DNA from: an uncultured Methanosarcinaceae archaeon
GTDB taxonomy: Archaea > Halobacteriota > Methanosarcinia > Methanosarcinales > Methanosarcinaceae
Assembly (NCBI GenBank): GCA_963833425.1
Contig: CAWHXP010000015.1
Span: 64,001 to 128,000 of the forward strand
Direction of reading: 5' to 3'
DNA length: 64,000 bases
The notes beneath the pieces are model-generated. The model was given only the letters and a program-made list of their open reading frames with translations, had not been told where the DNA came from and made no database searches. The position numbers and the translations under genes are program-made. Below, one piece after another: positions 3,290 to 36,320 of this stretch (position 1 is its first letter; every line of letters begins with the position of its first letter).

Positions 3290-3510
3290 AACTTTGATAG
3301 AATTTCTTTTCGAATTTCATTGACATCTTTGAAGACTATCTCAATGTTTTCATTTTTATTCTCTGAAATTGTATTAATTTTCCTGTATTCGCGCCTACCA
3401 AATCTTCTGGGAATCGTCTATTCAAAATCCAAATGCAAAACTGGCTATTTCCAGATTCAGCAGCATCATCAAATCGCTGTAGATTTTTTAAAGCCCTATC
3501 AGCATCGTAT
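3290..3510 (-). pseudogene. Degraded 3' fragment paralogous to the 6785-7218 gene
   Basis: Nucleotide similarity to 6850-7020 (tatctcaatgtt.tcatttttattctc.gaaa..gtattaatt.tcctgtattc); translates to AAESGNSQFCIWIL.RRFP. Confidence 0.7.
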
Positions 3511-3836
3511 TTGGATAGCCTGTATACTAGAACAATGAATAAGGGTCTCTTAGTCAGATTTGATTAAATAGGAGTTGAAGTAGTTTCAATAAATCTGTAA
3601 CAATTAGAATTGTAAAATAAACATTATTTAAACTATAAGTTATAAAATTTTGTCATTTATGTTTAATTCAAGACATAAATGCCGAATAAAATTATTCAGA
3701 AGTATAAATATAATTATATTTGCTGGAGAAAAATATATTTATGTTTTATATCGTTTTTTATAGGGCTAATAAGTCGATCTACTTTTGAAATTATAAAATA
3801 TTAGTTAGTGAAGTTCTGGTTTAAGATACCATTTAT

Positions 3837-4907
3837 TTAGGATATTATCTTATCCAGCTGATTCTTCTGCGCTGCAATTTTGATTTCCTGAGCTATTCTC
3901 CTTCCGGTTGAAAGGCTTTCTTGCATCAGGTCTGCATAAGGAGAGCCTGAAATATAAAGGTTTGTCCCAGCCACAATCCTGGCTGAAATTTCAAAAACCT
4001 TGATCTCAAGAGAATCAGTAAAAACTGTTTCAAGACAGAAGGCCCCTACCATCCCGCCAAAAAGATCAAGAGACTCTTCTACTACCCTTTCTCCAAGTGA
4101 AAAAATAAGAGGCAGAAGGGACTCTCTAACTACTAAGGGTACATTTCCTGTGACAACATATGTGGGACGAATGCCTGCTTCTATGAGTTCTCTGGGTGAG
4201 CCGAGTCTAAAGATTTCATCTGCATTAGACTCCACTCTGCGATCCATACTTAGGAGCTCAAGGATACCTTCGCTTAAGGCATATCCCTCGTTTCTGATCG
4301 GGGAATAAAAATAATGTAGGTAATAACGGGTCCCTGTGATAAATTCCTGAATTGTGAATTTTTGGGTTCGGTCTACGAGTTCATTGAATTCTTTATAGGT
4401 TTTTGCGACGAAAAAACCCTTTCCCCCTTTTGCTCCGTGGTACTTAACCATCACAGGCCCATTGATATCACGAGGATCTTCTATTTTTTCGGGCATGTGA
4501 ATACCTGCTCCAAGCAACCACTCACGTTCTTTATCTCTGTCAGATTCCCATTCGAGCACAGCTCTGTTTCCAAAAGTAGGAACTTCCAAATCTGCAAAAT
4601 TTTTCGTGCCCAGGTAAGCAACGAATGAGCCGTGTGGAATTATAATAGTGTTCTTCTTTCTAAGTTCTTCAGCCTTGGTCATTATATGTTCATACCTATC
4701 AACGATAAGGTACTCATCGGGTTTTGCCTTTGGAAATGCATCATAGAATTTAGGAGGTTTACCAACGCAGATTCCAAGAGTTCTGAATCCTTCTTTTCTC
4801 GCTCCGTCAAAGATTTGTAGGCTTGAGTGAGAACAGACTGTTGCGATAGCAATATTTTTTAAGTCATATTTTTTCAGAAATTCAAAAACCTGCGGTTTTG
4901 TGATCAT
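3837..4907 (-). CDS. purP: Formate--phosphoribosylaminoimidazolecarboxamide ligase (ATP-grasp)
   Basis: IAT.CSHSSLQI, IPHGSFVAY, VFEISARIVAGTN; likely start MITKPQ at 4907. Confidence 0.93.
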   Translation of the reverse strand: MITKPQVFEFLKKYDLKNIAIATVCSHSSLQIFDGARKEGFRTLGICVGKPPKFYDAFPKAKPDEYLIVDRYEHIMTKAEELRKKNTIIIPHGSFVAYLGTKNFADLEVPTFGNRAVLEWESDRDKEREWLLGAGIHMPEKIEDPRDINGPVMVKYHGAKGGKGFFVAKTYKEFNELVDRTQKFTIQEFITGTRYYLHYFYSPIRNEGYALSEGILELLSMDRRVESNADEIFRLGSPRELIEAGIRPTYVVTGNVPLVVRESLLPLIFSLGERVVEESLDLFGGMVGAFCLETVFTDSLEIKVFEISARIVAGTNLYISGSPYADLMQESLSTGRRIAQEIKIAAQKNQLDKIIS

Positions 4908-5390
4908 GATTATTACCAGCGAAAAATTTAGACTAGAATGTACAATGTTATATTTAACATTAAGGTTTAATTTTACATAAATATATAACAGTGTGCATAT
5001 ATTAACCCATAATAAATCAAAGTTGTGGTTGCACACCCACTAGCAAACAACGGGGTATTTTAGTAGTACATAAATGGATTGAAATGAATTATTCAAAATC
5101 AAATATTTTAATTTGCCTTATACTCATTTTTCTTCTTTGTTTCCTGATTTTCAGTATAGTTTTTAATGATTCAGAAGTTGTGCCGTCATAAACACTTCCA
5201 ATGTAACTCAATCACTCCACAGTTTCTGTCTATCCTAAAAGACTCGATCACGCCGTAGAGATTCATGGATTTCGTGATTCTCTATCTCTTCACCCTGCAG
5301 TCGGTTCCTTTTTGGATGTATTTATATAGTATTTCTGATGATGTAAGAGAAGTTTATTAAATAAAAAAAGCCAAATAATCGGAGATTGGT

Positions 5391-6200
5391 ATGAGGGTCG
5401 CTTTAAAGCTTGCATACATAGGCACTGAATTTCACGGCTCCCAGATCCAGCCCAATGTCGTGACAGTAGAAGGAGAACTCTTCAAAGCACTTCGTAATTT
5501 AGGAATCATAGAAAGCCATAAGTATGCTAATTATACCTGCGCCGGCAGGACGGATGCAGGAGTTAATGCCTTCGAACAGATCGTATCTTTTGATACTGAC
5601 AAAACAAATCTAGCAATTCCCAGGGTCATAAACTCCGAACTTCCCCCAACAATCTGGGCCTGGGCTCACGCGGAGGTACCTAACCACTTTGACGCTAGAA
5701 GAGACGCGATTTCAAGACACTATCGCTATATAATTAGTGGGGAAGGATACAATATTTCAAAGATCCGTGAGGCTTCAAAATTACTGGTCGGAAGACATGA
5801 TTTTGAGAACTTTTCAAAAATCAGTGGAGAAAAGAGCACAATTCGCACCTTGTTAAGGATTGATGCTCGCGTAGACGGGGATGTTACAAAAATCGATGTT
5901 ATTGGAAATAGTTTCCTTTGGAACATGGTCAGGAAAATAGTAACTGCACTTTCAATGATCGGAAAAGGTTTACGTGATAATGACTGGCTGCTCCAGATGC
6001 TAAACCCTGATATTTATGAAGAAGGAATTGAACCTGCTCCTGCCTGTGGTCTAACCCTGATGAAAATAAATTACGAAAAAAAAATAGATTGGATCGAAGA
6101 TAATTATTCTATCACAAGAGCTGGTTTGCAAAACAAGAAGCTTATTATCAAACATAGAGTTATTGCTGAGGTGCTGGATGAACTGATTTCCCATGAATAA
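5391..6200 (+). CDS. truA: tRNA pseudouridine(38-40) synthase
   Basis: AY.GTEFHGSQ.QP, AGRTDAGV, FLWNMVR. Confidence 0.95.
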   Translation: MRVALKLAYIGTEFHGSQIQPNVVTVEGELFKALRNLGIIESHKYANYTCAGRTDAGVNAFEQIVSFDTDKTNLAIPRVINSELPPTIWAWAHAEVPNHFDARRDAISRHYRYIISGEGYNISKIREASKLLVGRHDFENFSKISGEKSTIRTLLRIDARVDGDVTKIDVIGNSFLWNMVRKIVTALSMIGKGLRDNDWLLQMLNPDIYEEGIEPAPACGLTLMKINYEKKIDWIEDNYSITRAGLQNKKLIIKHRVIAEVLDELISHE

Positions 6201-6784
6201 GAAATGTCTTTTAAGTGACATACACTTAATGTTCAATGCACCGTTCATTTTCAATCGCTTAGTTTTACCTAATATAAACTATAGTTAATTAAAGTTTTCA
6301 ATATTTCACTCATAAAACATCAAGGCATTTAATATTTAGGCCTTTCCATACGATTCTTGGCCATCTTCCAAATAGGTAATGGCTACTTAAATCAACAGGG
6401 GATATGGCACTGATACGCGCATAGTAAGGTTCTTATTCGATGGCATTGGAGAAGCTAGCCATCATAAAATCGTTCTTAGAGTCGCTAAACTAATTGTGTT
6501 TGGTAAGGGCGATTTGATGAACTCAATGCCATAATGAAACATTGAAAATGGATTTAGCCCAAGCACGTCAGGATAAAGATGACATTAAAAAGACGTTTGA
6601 TAATTACATTATACAAGTTCAAATCCCTATTAATCAAAAAGCAGTTGAAGCTCAGGAGCAAAAAAGCCAAGGTGTCGATTTTTGTAATATTTGCTACAAT
6701 TATGCTACATAACAGAATGTGAAAGGAAAAATTTTCTAATAAAAGTAAATAGAGTTTTAATAAAAAAATTTAAACATTTTTTGG

Positions 6785-23055: not shown

Positions 23056-23704
23056 TAAGTTCGCTCTCCGTTAACTACTGAAAGCCCAGAGGCATTGAAT
23101 AAGTTCATGTAGTCCCAATACAATCTCTCCGAATATACTACGCTCCCACAAATATACCCATTCGAAGAAGGATTAGCGACCTTCAGGAGAATTATTTGTT
23201 GTGTCTGACCCAGTTTACTCTATAACTCTTGATAATATCATAATTAATTTATATTAAATTAATTCTGGAAAAAGTTAGTTTAAAGCAAAAAATAGTTTGA
23301 CGTAAAAAATTTCAAATCTATCAAAAACTTTAACCATTAATTTAAAGCATCATTTGCATTAAGTTAAATTACCCTTATATCAAAACCCTTCTTTTTGCTT
23401 CAGCTAACAATTTGTGAAGAGACATTAACATTAGTTTGAAATCAGTATTTACTTAGGACTATTAAGAATATTTTTATAGTCCATCCGAAAGTCTGAACAG
23501 TTTTAAGGCTGATATCAACAAATTTAATATACTCATTTGATTTCGATATACGGTGCTCCTTCGTTTTTTGTGGGGACAAAAAAATAAAAAGCAATTTTCG
23601 AATCTAAATTTTATAAATTTTTGGGATAAAAATGTAATTTAGAGAATTTATACAAGCCGATATTTTAGCTAGCTAGCTAAAACAATAATTAAACGAGGGT
23701 TAAA

Positions 23705-26939: not shown

Positions 26940-27386
26940 ATGGAAAGGAGTCAAATGAGAGCTAATTATAATATATTTATGGTAGATCAGCTTAAAATAT
27001 TTAAAATGATAATTAATTTCATTACTATTATCATTCTTTATGTATTGCTATTGGCACTAATTGTGGGAGTGGCAAATATCCTCTTTAATATCAAATCAAT
27101 TATATTTGGGACTTTTGGGGGGGGCTTTAGTCATATAGTATCCGATGTCCTCACAGTTTTTGTTCTTATCGACCTTTTCAGGACTTTTGTTGATTATCGT
27201 GTACATGAAGAAGTTAGAATTACATATGTAACTAATGTTACAATTTTAATAGTCCTGCGTGAAATTGCGACAGGATTATATGCCCAAAGATATGATTCTC
27301 AATTTATTTTAGGCCTATCAGCATTGCTGTTGATATTAGGTATAATGAGAGTTCTAACTATCAAATATCCCTCAACGCCCACGTAA
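26940..27386 (+). CDS. PsiE-family membrane protein
   Basis: Four TM segments, LTVFVLIDLF and LRE motifs; start uncertain. Confidence 0.75.
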   Translation: MERSQMRANYNIFMVDQLKIFKMIINFITIIILYVLLLALIVGVANILFNIKSIIFGTFGGGFSHIVSDVLTVFVLIDLFRTFVDYRVHEEVRITYVTNVTILIVLREIATGLYAQRYDSQFILGLSALLLILGIMRVLTIKYPSTPT

Positions 27387-27759
27387 ATCACTTTAGTGAA
27401 TCTAATATCTATTTTTTGATGGCTAGTATTCATTTTCATTAAGTATAGTGATATATACTTAGGATTTATCCATTTGGAGTAAAAAATCAAGTAAATTAAA
27501 AGTTTTTATCCAGTTATGCATTTTAGCTAATTAAAGCTAAATTCTAATGATTTCTCAGTTAAACTGCATAAGTTCTTTTTTATTCGTTTCGTAAAGCTAG
27601 GCGGACAATTTTGTTATCCTGACGTAACTCGACTTGAGCACGCTTTGAGATGTATACATAAATATGATGATTTCAAACCTGAACATCCGGTTATAAACGT
27701 GTAAAGAATCCTTTTAAAATTAAGAGTCTCAACTCTAAACAAGGATCAAACACGACACA

Positions 27760-28128
27760 TCATCTATGTACTTTCAGCCCATCTCCATGGTCGAAATTTA
27801 AAGTGGGATATTCTTCATAACAATTGTCACATAATACAGTTACAGTAGGGCTTTTACCCTTTTGTCGGATCGTTTTTATCATTCCACATTTTTCTAACTC
27901 ATCCAATGCTTTCGGAAACGTCCAACCTGGAACAGGTAGAAATGAGTTTATACCCTTCAGGGTGACTACTAAGTCTTTAGTAGATTTCTTCACCCCTTTT
28001 AAATGCCAAATATACATAGCCACCCTGTATGTATGCCCCAATGAATTGGAAGGTAACTTTACAACCCATTCTGAAGGCATTTGAGCTATAAAAGATCCTT
28101 TTATTTTATCTTTAGGATTCACCGGCAT
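27760..28128 (-). CDS. Hypothetical winged-helix-like protein of probable mobile-element origin
   Basis: ALDELEKCGMIKTIRQKGKSPTV resembles a wHTH wing; co-oriented downstream of the polA relic. Confidence 0.55.
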   Translation of the reverse strand: MPVNPKDKIKGSFIAQMPSEWVVKLPSNSLGHTYRVAMYIWHLKGVKKSTKDLVVTLKGINSFLPVPGWTFPKALDELEKCGMIKTIRQKGKSPTVTVLCDNCYEEYPTLNFDHGDGLKVHR

Positions 28129-28227
28129 TATCTTACTCCCATTTAATATTATTATCAAATATTAAGAAGAAATAAAGTAGATATAATAAAGAAATATAAG
28201 TAGTAAAACCGAGATCATGAGACCTTA

Positions 28228-28316
28228 GAATTTAGCTGTACAGCTAATTAATTTTAGCTGGAGAGCGAAATATATTTTGCTGTGCAGCTAATTAATATTG
28301 CTCTACAGCTAAATTC
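28228..28316. repeat. Nested inverted repeats of (t)agctg/cagcta units
   Basis: Perfect 13-bp outer IR gaatttagctgta / tacagctaaattc; 16-bp palindrome ttagctgtacagctaa. Confidence 0.8.
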
Positions 28317-28357
28317 AAATTTAGGTCTTAACAGAAATTATTGAAATTAGTATGTTC

Positions 28358-29048
28358 TCAGAGTCCTTCTTCTTTAATTTCTTCTAAAATCTTCATAATC
28401 AAACGCCACGTTTCTGCACCTTTCTCATCTATATACCTGCCAGGATAGCAGATAATACTGGCATCTGTTTTCAATCTGTTACCAGTACCTAGAACAATTT
28501 CAGATGCATCACACATTAGCTTTCTTGCCATCTCTATCTCTTTGTCTGCCACTTTTTCATCGCACTCAATCATAACCGCATCGTGGACTGGAGCAACAAT
28601 TTTAGTATTATTCTCCGAGAGAAGGATGCATGCCACTCTAAGAATTTCTGCTCCAGTGGCTTGAATTGGGAAATTTCGGACGGTCAACATTTCCTTATTG
28701 CTGGAGCCTGAGACAATCATTTTCCATTTATAACAGGTTTCAATCCTTTTCATTAAACAGGCTTGAGTCCAGATCTATATCTACCCAACGCCAATAATTT
28801 TTGAAAATTCTTTTATGATGGTTAAGCAGTTCTTTTGCATAAGGCGTAGGCTTACCAATTTTGAACCCAAGTGATTCTGCACCCAGACCATACTGAACGC
28901 CGAGCACACAGGATTTAAAGAGCTGTCTCAAACTACCATGCGTTTCTTTTGTAGCGTCTTCTGGAACTGCACCTGCTAATTTTGCAAAAGCCAGATATGG
29001 ATCTCCGCTCTTATATGCCTCAATCATATTAGGGTCCTTAGAGAGCAT
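28358..29048 (-). pseudogene. Family A DNA polymerase, C-terminal polymerase-domain fragment, frameshifted near 28775
   Basis: LSKDPNM..AY.SGDPY, motif B RQLFKSCVLGVQYG, NFPIQATGAE, motif C PVHDAV; motif A missing. Confidence 0.9.
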
Positions 29049-29076
29049 TTTTCATATTTCAGATCTAAGATTCCAT

Positions 29077-30114
29077 CTATTTTTGAAAAATAGTTACTCT
29101 CCTAGTAAGACTTTTATGCACTCTCTGGAAATAAATTTCAAGAACCTTAAGTCCGACCAGTTTTCCGTATTCAGATGCATCCTTATCAGAGACTACAACT
29201 GCAATACCTCCTGGCTTCAAAACACGTTGAATATCCTTAAGAGCACAGGAATAAAGATTCTCTAAGGATTCGGCAAGAACTGCTGCCGACCGTCCATATG
29301 GTGGATCAGTCACGATTGCGCTTATTGTCCCTTCCTTAAAAGGCATCATACGGGCATCTCCTTTCACCAAGGTATAGTCCAGCTCAAAGGCACTAAGGTT
29401 CATACAGGCACCTCTAACAATTTTTTCTTGGGCATCGATTCCCAAAACTCGTGCTCCCAAAATTCCGGCCTCAATAAGTATGCCAGCAGTACCACAAAAA
29501 GGATCCAGGAATAACTCCCCATGTTTTATTTTGGAAAGATTTGTAATAGCACGTGCTACCCTGGGCATAAGGACTCCAGGATGGAAAAAAGGTTTATTTT
29601 GGGGATTTCTGGTTTCATATGCACTTCTGTTGATGGAAGATGTAAGCGTTCCTAAAACAGCCTTTCCACTTAAGATCAGCCGAAATTCCACATCTGGACT
29701 TTTCAGGTTCGCTTGAAAGCCTTTTTTATTGATGAATCCTCCTATTTTTGATTCCAGAAGATTGGTGGAAAAGTTCACGTGATGTTTAACACTTTTTGCT
29801 CGAACTACAAAACTTTGACCTTCCGTTATAAAACATGAGAACTCAAAGGAGTTTGTAAGTACCAGAATCGCATCCACGGTGTTTTCAGTAATCCCTATAA
29901 CTTTTAGGATATGATGGGTCATTGCGAGCCTTTCAGTTATAGGACCTTTAAGAATTTTTTCTACGTCTTCTTCTTTACCTGCTATATCAACCACCAGGCA
30001 TTGGTCAACCCTGGTATGTGGCTGGAAATCAAGCTCCTCTATTTTGAGGCAAGCAAGAACTTCAGCAGCTGGCAATTCTTCATGCTCTCCAGAGAGTTCA
30101 AAAGCGTACAGCAT
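29077..30114 (-). CDS. tRNA (guanine(10)-N2)-methyltransferase (TIGR01177 / Trm11, THUMP domain)
   Basis: ELSGEH, PFFHPG, LDPFCGTAG, VTDPPYG, VHKSLTR. Confidence 0.92.
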   Translation of the reverse strand: MLYAFELSGEHEELPAAEVLACLKIEELDFQPHTRVDQCLVVDIAGKEEDVEKILKGPITERLAMTHHILKVIGITENTVDAILVLTNSFEFSCFITEGQSFVVRAKSVKHHVNFSTNLLESKIGGFINKKGFQANLKSPDVEFRLILSGKAVLGTLTSSINRSAYETRNPQNKPFFHPGVLMPRVARAITNLSKIKHGELFLDPFCGTAGILIEAGILGARVLGIDAQEKIVRGACMNLSAFELDYTLVKGDARMMPFKEGTISAIVTDPPYGRSAAVLAESLENLYSCALKDIQRVLKPGGIAVVVSDKDASEYGKLVGLKVLEIYFQRVHKSLTRRVTIFQK

Positions 30115-30509
30115 CTGTAATCCGGAATATATGATTTATATAGATTGGATTGATATTCAAATTATATAATTATTTATATCTATCTTAAAATATACATAAA
30201 ATGTAATGCTAATTGCCAACTTGAAAGAACTTGCTAAATAATTATTTAATAAATAAAATCAGGGCCTCCTCAATTATTTGGTTTATTTAATTTTCAAAAT
30301 CATTTAGTTCCATTTTTCCTGATTTTGTTCGCATCTTACGAGATTAGTTAGAGTGAATTTGTTTCAGTGAATGAAAAAGCAAATATTCGTACACTTGAAA
30401 CTTAATCATGAAAGCTTAATCATTCAGTGAGGGACGAGAAGGTCGTATATCTGAAATAGATTGTATGGATAAGTTTATCCTTAAAAGCAATTTTTCAAGT
30501 ATTTTTTCC

Positions 30510-30797
30510 TCAAAACATCTTCTCCAGAGCTTCTCTGCCAATCATCTCTGGCTTAATCCCAAGTCTTCTGGCCATTTCAGTTACTTCCACTACCTGGGCT
30601 TTGAGCATATCTTCAAAGCTTTTTACGCCTTTTACTTTCGCTGCTATATCCCCAAACTCCTCAGCAGCATTTACATTCAGGTATCCGCACATTAGGAACC
30701 CTTTATCAGTTCTTATAACCAATAGAGTATATTTTTGCATCTCAAAGCTGAGGCCCAAAGCACACCCATTTTCAAGCTGAATTTGTTCGATGAGCAT
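30510..30797 (-). CDS. YunC / DUF1805 family protein
   Basis: KGFLMCGYL, AAKVKGV, A..LGI...M.GREAL. Confidence 0.85.
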   Translation of the reverse strand: MLIEQIQLENGCALGLSFEMQKYTLLVIRTDKGFLMCGYLNVNAAEEFGDIAAKVKGVKSFEDMLKAQVVEVTEMARRLGIKPEMIGREALEKMF

Positions 30798-31659
30798 ATT
30801 TTTTAGAATTAGCTTCAAACCAAATTAACTTTTTGGACTCAGCAAATTTATAATTTTTTGTGGTTCAGATTCTCAGATTTACTCGTTTCTTCAGATCTTT
30901 TTTGGAAATCCTGTTCTTCACAATGATCTAAGACACTTTTGTAATCTCGTATGTTAAATATCTTTTTTTTCATGATTTTTGGCACTTAAAAAAGGTAAGA
31001 ATCTAAATATTTAGTAGTCACCATGATAGGTATAAATTCATTTTTACCTGTCCAACATTGGGCTTTTTCGAAGATCTTGACGAATTAGAAAAATATTAAA
31101 TGCTAAAAACGATAAGATAACGAGGTCAAAGTTCCAAATTAACTCTGTTATGTGACAATTGTTGTGAAGGATATCCCACTTTAAAAATCCTTAATAGGTT
31201 CGAAAAACACGCATATGAAATGAAAATCAAATACTTTAGACATTGTAGTGTGATCAAAAAAGATGATTGAGGAGTTTATAGCAGATTTTACAGAAATTAT
31301 GACACTGCATCTCAGATTAATCTTCATCATTTTTAGGAAAAATCTCAATGTTAAATTTATGAATATTTCCTAAAATAATAAAAATATGGTTAATATGGAA
31401 TTATATTTTGATTTTAAAAAATTTTATGGGGGAATTAATTTTATTCAGAAACTGCGTTTTATATAATTAATTTCAAATAACGAAGGAGATAATTGTACAT
31501 GTAGCTTGAAGTAACAGATAATGAATTAAAAAGTGAGAAATTTTCCAACACTTCCAAGATTACTATTATTGGGTTACATTTGAATTGTCATTGATTATAG
31601 TTTACAAGGATATAAAGCCAATGAAGTAAGCATTATAGTGGTAAAAATAAAGAGGTTAA

Positions 31660-32974: not shown

Positions 32975-33550
32975 ACACTTGAGGATTAATACTTTAAGTA
33001 AGGATTTCTCGACAGCTAATCAATTTTCTATATAATTATAAAATTTGAGTTGCCTATATAAATCTTCTATAGATTAGTCTTATTAGGTTCAATTTATCCG
33101 ACATTCCATATATGTACAAAGATATAGAATTTGTTACCTATTTGTCTACTATTATTGATTGAAGATTATATTAATTTTTAAGCTACTGCCATATTGAGAA
33201 AATATCTGCCATTTTTGCGTGCATTCACGTAAAATAGGACTTATGGTAAACTCACTAATTAGTTACAATTCTAAAAAACGGGTTTAACTTTGGAAGCTTT
33301 CGATGAATCTAAATTTGCAAATATGCTTATAAGCGGTGTATAAATGATTCATGAAAATCAGTATTTATCAAAATGCTTTCTAATGTAGGCCTCTAGAAAG
33401 GGATTGAAAGATAAAGTAGGCATAAAACCATTGAAATGATGGCGAAAATTAAGCCAAAGCGTGAATGAGAGGTTTACGTTTCTTAGTCAAAACCAAAAAT
33501 GCAATATAGGGTCTATATTATTAGCAAACAAACGAGTATCGAGTACATGT

Positions 33551-35245: not shown

Positions 35246-35464
35246 CTTATTCTCCAGAAATATTTCTATAAATTAATAATCAGAATTATCTAGTGCGTCA
35301 GAATGGATTTAGCCAGCTGATTTTTTTGTAAAATAAATAGTTACGAACAGATTTATATTTATGTTGTAACCTGAAAAAACTGGGCCATTATCCAAAATTG
35401 TTTTATTTTTCAGTCGCTCTAGCACGCTCTTCCGTGGTCATGTTAGCAAGGCGTTCCACTTCCT

Positions 35465-36320
35465 GGTTCCGTTGCAAAAATTTCGAAATAAGCATGTAAA
35501 TCTATTAGTAATGAATAAAAATCAAAATATTCAAGGAAAATGTACTAACATTATAAAACTATACCAAATAATTGATTAACGTATTTGACTTCATTAAGAA
35601 CAGAGTAATTTAGATCGATTACTTGTCCTTTTTTGATCATATTTATAGCTTCAATTCCTTTTAAAGTCTTATTAGCAGATCGAAAAGACTGAAATCCTAA
35701 CATTTGATTAACGATTCTCTTTATAGATCTGTGATCTTGTTCTATAATGTTATTCAAATACTTTATTTGTCGAATGCCTACGTTTTTAGGTAATATTTTC
35801 TCGTTTTTCAGTTTATCTATAGCAGGTGGATAAGCTGGATTCTTATCAACGGTTATTAATCTTGGAATTTGATTATGATTAGAACTTAAAGCTTTCTTAA
35901 AGAATCTCTTCGCTGCTTTTCTATTTCGTTTTGAACTTAATCTGAAATCAATTGTATCTCCATTTGAGTCAACTGCTCGATAAAAATAGTCCCATTTACC
36001 TTTTACTTTGATATAGGTTTCATCAACTCTCCACGAATAGTTTGTTAGCCTTAAATGTCTTCTTATCTTCTTTTCTATTTCAGGTGAATATTGATGTACC
36101 CATCTCATGACTATCGTATGGTAGACTTTTACTCCCCTTTCTGCCATCATTTCCTTTAAATTTCTATAACTTAATGGATATTTTAAGTACCATCTTACAT
36201 TTAATAGAATAATTTCCCCTTCATAATGCTTCCATTTAAAGGAATTAGATAGCATATTACTATCTTTGGTTTTTCTTTTCATTCTATTTATCATTAGAAA
36301 GGATTTTTTGCAACGGAACC
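35465..36320 (-). mobile_element. IS6-family element, complete (856 bp)
   Basis: Terminal IRs ggttccgttgcaaaaa / tttttgcaacggaacc; no flanking target duplication seen. Confidence 0.95.
35551..36294 (-). CDS. IS6-family DDE transposase
   Basis: LSYRNL.EMM.ERG, WRVDETYIKVKG, TVDKNPAY, LNNIIEQDHR. Confidence 0.95.
   Translation of the reverse strand: MINRMKRKTKDSNMLSNSFKWKHYEGEIILLNVRWYLKYPLSYRNLKEMMAERGVKVYHTIVMRWVHQYSPEIEKKIRRHLRLTNYSWRVDETYIKVKGKWDYFYRAVDSNGDTIDFRLSSKRNRKAAKRFFKKALSSNHNQIPRLITVDKNPAYPPAIDKLKNEKILPKNVGIRQIKYLNNIIEQDHRSIKRIVNQMLGFQSFRSANKTLKGIEAINMIKKGQVIDLNYSVLNEVKYVNQLFGIVL

Follow-up and report, generated by a model that had tools for sequence, protein, structure and literature searches.

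A truncated CHEAP-type family-A DNA polymerase gene in a Methanosarcinaceae genome, very probably the relic of a small integrase-bearing mobile element

Introduction

Why should the genome of a methanogen contain the last third of a family-A DNA polymerase gene? Archaeal DNA replication relies on family-B and family-D polymerases, and for this reason a proofreading family-A enzyme in methanogens needs explaining. The question is raised by a stretch of 64,000 nucleotides, here called the window, from an uncultured Methanosarcinaceae archaeon (assembly GCA_963833425.1, contig CAWHXP010000015.1, positions 64,001 to 128,000), in which a fragment of a polymerase gene (polA) and a small gene behind it lie on the minus strand. 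An earlier reading made from the letters alone, the sequence-only reading, took the pair for the tail of an integrated element equipped with a polA and a regulator of its own. We have found intact versions with an integrase, polA and the same kind of regulator gene elsewhere in the same genome and in other genomes, and the window stretch is very probably the relic of a small integrase-bearing mobile element. The polymerase (PolA) of these elements is encoded between an OB-fold protein (OB) and a winged helix-turn-helix (wHTH) protein, and the three genes are referred to below as the cassette. The genome of the window (G000) consists of 21 contigs (C1, C5 and so on) with a completeness of 80%, and was compared with its relatives G031, G006 and G004; L numbers denote loci and X numbers public sequencing runs.

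Results

The polymerase gene of the window is truncated and frameshifted

The element-derived features of the window are the following.

28358..29049, minus strand: CHEAP-type family-A DNA polymerase pseudogene, 5'-truncated and frameshifted (Pfam, PHROG, colinear DNA alignment to C5)
28776, minus strand: frameshift, one extra base relative to the intact C5 paralogue (alignment blocks)
28298–28312, 28276–28291 and 28232–28247 (approximate; overall 28232..28312), no strand: three dyad-symmetric sites of the TTAGCTGTACAGCTAA type in the polA-wHTH spacer
27760..28128, minus strand: wHTH gene, third gene of the cassette, intact, 122 codons (identity to C5, profile, predicted fold)
27744..27782, no strand: distal limit of the DNA common to element copies (blastn ends 27744, 27782 and 27797)

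The pseudogene corresponds to codons ~362–589, the last ~228 codons, of an intact 589-aa gene on contig C5, and is split into two minus-strand open reading frames (ORFs), 28740–29048 (102 aa) and 28358–28753 (131 aa). The first matches positions 170–255 of the Pfam DNA_pol_A profile (E 1.1e-6) and the second positions 295–363 (E 5.6e-7), and both match PHROG 17, DNA polymerase (E 3e-11 and 7e-11, respectively). Motif B RQLFKSCVLGVQYG (KSCVLGVQYG in the window), the stretch NFPIQATGAE and motif C in APVHDA, all of which the sequence-only reading had picked out, can be read in the translations. The homology to PolA begins only at codon ~362, just past motif A (D352), and the exonuclease domain and motif A are therefore gone from the window copy. 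The DNA alignment to C5 is colinear from 29049 to 27782, with the extra base at 28776 as its sole in-frame indel; a second one-base indel, at 28368, adjoins the polA stop codon. The missing motif A and the single frameshift had thus been called correctly. The base at 28776 is absent from one metagenome contig of a relative (run X3).

The window DNA recurs on C5 with 84.7% identity over 1292 bp (blastn), which is far beyond chance, and the amino-acid identities of the two ORFs to the C5 gene (C5:68391–70157) are 93% and 89%. The ratios of nonsynonymous to synonymous substitution rates (dN/dS) between the window and C5 are 0.06 and 0.20 for the two polymerase pieces and 0.14 for the small gene (dS 0.83). 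These low ratios indicate that the window and C5 lineages diverged as working genes and that the window copy died late. In the window nothing of the cassette can work any longer, the wHTH protein possibly excepted, and the relic is ordinary genome debris whose role is limited to marking past invasions of a repeat-rich genome.

A winged-helix gene follows behind a spacer with dyad-symmetric sites

The small co-oriented ORF is entered as 27760–28158 in the mechanical ORF list and has an ATG at 28128. Its product is 78% identical in amino acids to the C5 copy across the whole length and found no match in Pfam or PHROG searches. The profile of its family matches the wHTH domains of GntR/FadR, MarR, CRP and CodY (best E 3.4e-4). 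The predicted model, with a predicted local distance difference test score (pLDDT) of 84, has a helix-helix-helix-strand-strand layout, and a Foldseek search with it returned the wHTH domains of CodY and ArsR/SmtB (probability up to 1.00, E 3e-3). Judged by its predicted fold the small protein is a winged helix; profile matches and model agree with the wHTH-like ORF proposed from the letters alone.

The three dyads of the TTAGCTGTACAGCTAA type in the spacer ahead of the wHTH gene are probable binding sites of the wHTH protein, as operator and/or origin. The same dyad repeats are found in the C5 copy and in the Methanosarcinaceae loci L037–L039, and the dyad sequences vary by lineage. Across the loci described below, the polA-wHTH spacer has a median length of ~100 nt. 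Dyads with arms of at least 6 nt are present in 35 of 48 such spacers (mean 11.4 and maximum 20 in 200 simple mononucleotide shuffles) and dyads with arms of at least 7 nt in 19 (shuffle mean 3.6, maximum 12), an enrichment that is an indication and not a probability, since related loci are not independent.

Intact copies in the same genome carry an integrase

A search of the window's genome by tblastn with the window peptides, together with blastn, located further copies, and the genome has 12 matches to PF00476 in all. The polA gene is intact on C5, is present in copies ~58–66% identical on C18, C21 and C1, and is broken on C7, C3 and C8; the open full-length genes are those of C5 (589 aa) and C18 (584 aa), and those of C21 and C1 are split or partial. 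A wHTH homologue stands behind the polymerase on C5, C18, C21, C1, C7 and C3. The element on C5 comprises, in order, a tyrosine integrase (443 aa; Phage_integrase E 4e-11, PHROG 1), a divergent 318-aa ORF, a 127-aa ORF, the 189-aa OB ORF, PolA (589 aa; Pfam E 4.4e-27) and the wHTH protein (122 aa). On C18 there is a complete element of a second subfamily with integrase, divergent ORF, small ORF, 190-aa ORF, PolA (584 aa), wHTH gene and a 140-aa ORF. C21 has the layout of C18 with a split polymerase, and C1 is 98.5% identical to C18 over 6.7 kb, both copies lying at contig ends. The same layout recurs, with integrases, in the Methanosarcinaceae loci L037–L043 from metagenome-assembled genomes (MAGs), in Methanoperedens (L049) and in the genomes G070, G108, G116 and G299. 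The DNA common to related elements is the three-gene core only and ends at one point inside the 3' end of the wHTH gene; the distal limit seen in the window is found at C5 67807/67808 in six related loci. These intact versions bear out the proposal of an integrated element that brings along a polA and a regulator, and the homologues are not ordinary chromosomal Pol I genes lacking an HTH partner and a mobile context.

Several other observations were made in this genome. Solo units consisting of the last polA codons, the dyad spacer and the wHTH gene are about as common as polymerase-bearing copies; the solo wHTH copies, mostly partial or frameshifted, lie at C5:57368–58011, C7:98227–98754, C7:186056–186557, C7:292352–292700, C13:83279–83700, C8:210.7 kb and window 30975–31263, and may be deletion remnants or repressor genes kept for their own use. 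Beside the C5 element (L009 6105–11892, which is C5:61105–66892) are a Trypco2 gene, a trypsin-TIR fusion and a gene for a 1354-aa TIR-NB-ARC-TPR protein, likely a defence island. A second, unrelated PolA type with the canonical NFG motif B is present in decayed form at C8:405225–406899, C7:286273–287037, C7:237928–238078 and C13:128695–129269. It is 40–69% identical to an intact 580-aa gene of the same-genus genome G018 (L013), and may be the other Methanomicrobia-borne PolA cluster of Czernecki et al.

The polymerase is a CHEAP and its upstream partner a predicted OB-fold protein

The PolA proteins are 570–640 aa long and consist of a 3'-5' exonuclease (DEDDy) and a polymerase domain, with no 5'-3' exonuclease. 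The exonuclease residues D14/E16 and Y149/D153 do not vary among 14 aligned members from archaea and bacteria, nor do D352 of motif A, R403/K407/Y415 of motif B and H517/D518 of motif C. The window fragment keeps the family-A motifs B and C, and its intact paralogues keep A, B and C. Czernecki et al. (2023, Nucleic Acids Research 51:4488, PMC10201439) describe a cluster #15 of such enzymes, the CHEAPs, which are bacterial (mainly Proteobacteria) and Methanomicrobia proteins with all motifs conserved and a Leu in place of Phe in motif B (KxCVLGVQYG) that do not stand in for the host polymerase; the enzyme of I. dechloratans has strong polymerase and exonuclease activity, and the CCPols of SCCmec (staphylococcal cassette chromosome mec) are the nearest relatives of the group. 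The first 400 residues of the I. dechloratans reference in the supplement of that paper match our alignment consensus block for block by eye, and on this ground the present polymerase is placed in CHEAP. As we understand the wording of the paper, the Leu of the window's motif B is at its 'B3' position (PMC10201439).

A model of the 189-aa protein encoded upstream of polA, built on 28 homologues, has a pLDDT of 91. Foldseek found RB69 and T4 gp32 and PRD1 P12 (best E 0.058), and VIA-align gave gp32 (Z 4.8, root-mean-square deviation 4.6, 141 residues) and RB69 gp32 (Z 4.4), followed by the OB folds of BRCA2, HIN, RPA and CST. With moderate confidence, based on the predicted model, we regard the protein as an OB-fold single-strand-binding protein. 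It has no match in Pfam, PHROGs, NCBIfam, PADLOC or a PDB sequence profile search, and the ESM Atlas returned unnamed clusters only, below 0.9. The family is large: its representative clusters number 5,521 at E <= 0.001, and at E <= 1e-10 there are still 4,109.

The three genes are conserved together and lie on integrase-bearing units

A scan of one genome per species yielded 533 loci encoding relatives, of which the best 80 were kept and examined over 7 kb on each side; 8 are from Methanosarcinaceae/Methanosarcina, 1 is from Methanoperedens and 71 are bacterial, from many phyla. The OB gene is upstream of PolA in 76 of the 80, and the wHTH gene downstream in 59 (phmmer, single queries) or 65 (clustering). 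In 53 of 59 loci with a full-length polymerase ORF a PolA start codon is between -8 and +15 nt from the OB stop codon, mostly with overlaps of 1 or 4 nt; the OB gene is translationally coupled to polA. The only other widespread clusters are tyrosine recombinases (40 + 7, or 47 of the 80 loci), and the integrase adjoins a tRNA or tmRNA gene in 13 of the 43 loci scanned for it. Of the genes that the sequence-only reading had proposed to look for around full-length homologues, integrases and the same HTH partner recur in the neighbourhoods.

A Pfam scan of 156 neighbouring ORFs added detail to this picture. Downstream of the wHTH gene there are excisionase-type HTH_17 genes (L051, L064, L075, L082 and L109) or a gene for a small terminase (Terminase_4; L055, L095, L098, L099 and L113), with a large terminase also in L055. 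These five terminase loci are all bacterial, and no terminase or capsid families were found in the archaeal loci examined. Serine recombinases are encoded in L063, L074, L079 and L104, and further tyrosine integrases in L078, L090, L097, L107 and L111. Helicase families were absent both from the conserved clusters and from the 156 scanned ORFs. The Polynucleobacter cosmopolitanus locus L098 consists of tRNA-Lys, integrase, two small ORFs, OB, PolA, wHTH and small terminase genes, and since host efflux genes follow, the unit measures ~5.3 kb; its layout is that of a phage satellite. In Neobacillus mesonae (L093) an integrase gene, a cI-type HTH gene and an HTH_17 gene precede the cassette, and a ClpP-type protease gene lies further downstream. 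In three Methanosarcinaceae MAGs, elements of two polymerase subfamilies (L037 14533–19594, L040 7579–12641 and L043 14069–19129) are directly upstream of the nifH-nifI-nifDK operon, which suggests a shared insertion site.

Among viral sequences in IMG/VR, 14 of 47 matching loci reach at least 36% identity; 12 of these 14 have the wHTH gene and 8 the OB gene, and 4 of the 6 that lack OB start inside the polymerase at a contig end. No close relative was found in 50,697 phage records, where the best CHEAP-like match is 31.6% identical over part of the protein, or in 72,556 plasmid records, in which no match reaches 60% and the matches listed do not exceed 28.3%. The only CHEAP-like match in the phage database (CP017838.1, 42127–43275, E 2e-34) is at the very end of an unannotated 43-kb Silvanigrella aquatica record.

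Could the trio be anti-virus defence cargo, its polymerase acting on invader DNA and its wHTH protein serving as a repressor? A compact set of three genes that spreads horizontally and has a small wHTH repressor at its head or tail is typical of defence systems, the C5 copy adjoins the Trypco2/trypsin-TIR and TIR-NB-ARC-TPR genes described above, and PADLOC gave one match, to RTasPolA of the DRT (defence-associated reverse transcriptase) group, with E 2.4e-28. That match, however, spans the generic polymerase domain only (residues 186–542) and leaves the OB and wHTH proteins unmatched. Because the trio is, besides the recombinase, the sole conserved gene set in the examined flanks of the 80 loci, and because in the annotated loci it sits between integrase/regulator genes and excisionase-like or small-terminase genes, the expected place of the replication genes of an island, we rate defence cargo lower than element replication genes and regard it as improbable.

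The polymerase has a patchy distribution

A class-wide profile search at E <= 1e-40 matched 6 of 301 genomes, the window's genome included. Of these six, the window's genome carries several copies, G031, which is its closest relative, retains only decayed ones, and those of G070, G108, G116 and G299 are intact. An initial draw of 31 genomes, 18 of them from the same genus, gave one other match within the genus, the PolA of G018, which is of another type and only 30% identical. A quick maximum-likelihood tree (LG+G4) was calculated with 70 rows, comprising 66 of the 80 loci, C5, C18, the window fragment, its frameshift written as X, and, as outgroup, the G018 protein; the other 14 loci were dropped, their polymerase ORFs being shorter than 560 or longer than 700 aa. 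The nearest row to the window fragment is the C5 copy, with 92% identity over 216 columns. A branch with an SH-aLRT of 95 has all archaeal rows to one side, amid bacterial rows; given the great length of the branch to the outgroup, the tree only suggests a direction of transfer. The label Pseudomonadota changes 10 times on the tree, and at least 5 of these changes are forced by well-supported branches. Identical PolA proteins were seen in differently labelled bins, namely L063/L066 (Nitrosomonadales and Verrucomicrobiota) and L047/L048 (two Nitrospinota bins), which could reflect binning error or very recent transfer.

These data bear on the view that the window holds an ordinary cellular gene for an auxiliary or repair polymerase that decayed in place, as might be expected from the description of CHEAPs as cellular (Czernecki et al., PMC10201439). 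A cellular gene is hard to reconcile with a presence in 6 of 301 genomes of the class together with several copies, decayed ones among them, in a single genome, with linkage to integrase and tRNA genes, or with the empty site of relatives described below. The 10 Pseudomonadota changes and the two pairs of identical PolA, one of them across two phyla, also speak against it, and of the explanations considered here we hold it to be the least probable, with hardly any weight left to it.

The relic lies at the edge of a block that relatives lack at this place

The surroundings of the relic contain the following features.

29077–30114, minus strand: THUMP/UPF0020 methyltransferase gene
30510–30818, minus strand: DUF1805 gene
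26940–27386, plus strand: psiE
29034..29049, no strand: join of host spacer to polA interior (aligns to the G031 empty site and to C5 polA)
30975..31263, plus strand: second wHTH-gene relic, fragmentary and inverted (blastn, tblastn)

The polA fragment starts 27 bp behind the stop codon of the methyltransferase gene, close to the ~30 bp given earlier. In G031 (methyltransferase 92% identical), G006 and G004 the gene order is DUF1805, methyltransferase, truA-like pseudouridine synthase and DUF1246/DUF1297; the methyltransferase gene directly adjoins the truA-like gene in G031 and G006, and ~1.9 kb separate the two in G004. In the window's genome the truA block (window 3510–6215) and the methyltransferase block (29034–30982) are ~23 kb apart. 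Between them (6215–29034) is an accessory block with genes for short-chain dehydrogenases/reductases (SDRs), two isochorismatase-family proteins, Nramp, flavodoxin and a cupin and with peroxidase and sulfatase fragments; psiE belongs to this block and the polymerase relic lies at its methyltransferase edge. Peat metagenome contigs from runs X1, X2 and X5 depart from the window at 29034 and continue as truA-side sequence, which shows that there are populations in which the site is empty. The unoccupied site in relatives that the sequence-only reading had asked about is thus real (G031, G006 and the X1, X2 and X5 contigs), but it is flanked by the truA-like gene and not by psiE.

The match to host DNA stops at 29034 and that to the element begins at 29049. 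Where the two are joined, the spacer of the host (GCTCTTTAAGGAC in G031) and the polA interior (TCTCTCTAAGGAC in C5) agree at 11 of the 12 bases of CTCTCTAAGGAC, and a similar word is present at the truA-side end. The ATG of the first ORF arises from the join. The aligned sequences thus show an illegitimate join at the level of microhomology.

A polA start this close behind the methyltransferase gene could also be produced by an assembly chimera. The genome is very repeat-rich, several element copies are at contig ends, and none of four public runs, which are from relatives and not from the source sample and leave parts of the stretch uncovered, contains a contig bridging 29049. Against this, the two sides agree at only 11 of 12 bases, far below the overlap that assemblers need to join contigs. 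The window copy is also not a misplaced pile of reads, since the closest other copy in the genome is only 84.7% identical in DNA, and its status as a relic, seen in the frameshift and the divergence, would stand even with a wrong join. A chimeric join is in our estimation very improbable.

Host synteny with G031 ends at ~30982–31005, where the second wHTH relic starts, so that the methyltransferase-DUF1805 pair is bracketed by element debris. A further neighbour in the window is a cytidylate-kinase-like gene, and no tRNA genes were found in the window. Relocation of the 23-kb block to another place in the relatives was considered and rejected: no colinear block was found elsewhere in G031, G006 and G004, only scattered paralogue and repeat matches. 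Among the repeats of the genome are an insertion sequence with a DDE_Tnp_IS240 transposase (247 aa; window 35464–36294), present at more than 60 places with 77–99% identity, and short repeats at about window 23489–23660, 31330–31500 and 33100–33220, which have dozens of genomic copies and resemble miniature inverted-repeat transposable elements (MITEs).

Discussion

The evidence is best accounted for if the window holds what is left of a small integrative element's replication cassette, in a copy that is now dead, an explanation that we consider, as a whole, highly probable. The intact element consists of a tyrosine integrase gene, a divergent ORF of 320–400 aa, one or two small ORFs, the genes for the ~190-aa OB protein and the ~585-aa PolA, the dyad spacer and the gene for the ~120-aa wHTH protein. 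In its archaeal form it measures ~7 kb, an estimate from shared DNA because no element ends were found. The integrase would cut out a circle. The wHTH protein would bind the dyads that precede its gene, where it would act as a mark of the origin and/or as a repressor of the cassette, the OB-fold protein would hold the single-stranded template for the polymerase and may permit a primer-free start, as MP does for the CcPol of SCCmec, and the polymerase would copy the element. In some bacterial members the small terminase could allow the copies to be packaged by a helper phage, and these members may be phage satellites. In the window the last third of polA would have been joined behind the methyltransferase gene, the one-base insertion would have come later, and the dyads and the wHTH gene are still whole. 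The balance tips slightly towards the cassette being the replicase of the element; that it also primes by itself is doubtful, if conceivable.

Several points weigh against this interpretation. To the lack of a contig bridging the join and the simple shuffles and related loci behind the dyad counts must be added that the cassette has no helicase and no recognised primase, for which reason self-sufficient replication is an assumption. The scores of the OB-fold comparison are weak and in a range where only the common arrangement may be shared. Repeats of the att type (at least 12 nt), looked for between the tRNA or integrase side and the far side, were not found in the loci tried by blastn-short, by exact words of 10–30 nt or by a repeat search, and in a look for extrachromosomal forms none of 32 short cassette-bearing contigs had a terminal overlap. 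Finally, CHEAPs have been treated as cellular enzymes with 'no known partners' (PMC10201439).

The polymerase resembles the CHEAPs of Czernecki et al. in its ~580 aa, its exonuclease and polymerase domains, its motifs, the Leu and the range over Proteobacteria and Methanomicrobia (PMC10201439). The difference lies in context: described there as cellular and partnerless, the enzyme is found here in an OB-PolA-wHTH cassette on integrase-bearing elements, of which the window contains a dead third. The closest studied parallel is offered by CcPol, which together with the OB-fold protein MP forms a primase-polymerase beside a helicase on serine-recombinase islands of Bacillota (Bebel et al. 2020, PMC7581432; Rice 2023, PMC10061031). 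In both cases an integrative element carries a family-A polymerase gene together with an unannotated gene for an OB-fold protein, and the pair has been proposed as the replication module of the island. In SCCmec the order is Pol, a ~100-aa OB protein and helicase, the recombinases are large and of the serine type, and the site of insertion is rlmH or ssrA, whereas the present OB protein is ~190–220 aa long, gp32-like and encoded upstream of the polymerase, the full proofreading domain is kept, a wHTH gene takes the place of the helicase, and the integrases are mostly tyrosine integrases beside tRNA genes. The TV-Pols are likewise polymerases of the PolA superfamily whose genes, in small elements, are linked to those of integrases, resolvases or transposases, and priming and copying of the element have been proposed as their role; they are described as minimal cores that never carry or adjoin nuclease domains (Iyer, Abhiman and Aravind 2008, PMC2579912), unlike the present enzyme with its complete and conserved 3'-5' exonuclease domain.

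Phage satellites, for example PICIs (phage-inducible chromosomal islands), are resembled by the Polynucleobacter-type loci with a small terminase (L095, L098, L099 and L113), and excisionase-type HTH genes are present in several loci. Our literature search found no report of a family-A polymerase in a phage satellite. Described phage satellites replicate with primase-helicase or Rep proteins. Casposons and pipolins are integrative elements that bring their own DNA polymerase, which is of family B; they thus differ in polymerase family and, in the case of casposons, also in their integration enzymes. A 'PolA3' group in prophage regions, lacking the OB-PolA-wHTH cassette, appears in a 2026 paper of the Kazlauskas group (PMC12926913). 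No description of the cassette or of its mobile context was found in the literature searched, to which subscription journals and unopened supplements may add. The suggestion of a little-described class of archaeal mobile elements holds in so far as the cassette and its mobile context look undescribed; it does not hold in being confined to archaea, since 71 of the 80 loci are bacterial, and the polymerase itself already has a name, CHEAP.

For methanogens, the explanation offered is that their PolA rides on small integrase-bearing elements from the bacterial mobilome. The CHEAPs, which biochemistry has shown to be fast and proofreading, are thereby recast as the central member of a conserved set of three genes on mobile elements, thousands of them in bacteria and a few in archaea, and two unannotated partners are brought out, an OB-fold family without a Pfam model and a wHTH protein with lineage-specific dyads. 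This raises the question of whether a full-length proofreading PolA with a partner resembling a single-strand-binding protein can start synthesis by itself, like the truncated CcPol-MP pair. Tentatively, the cassette may be a self-sufficient replicon in which the wHTH protein would mark the origin at the dyads and the OB protein would make the proofreading PolA independent of a primer. It would then represent a family, very large and cross-domain, whose mini integrative elements and virus satellites have so far been taken for 'cellular' polymerase genes. Those of Methanosarcinaceae and Methanoperedens would be the first mobile elements of archaea known to have family-A replication, having entered from bacteria once.

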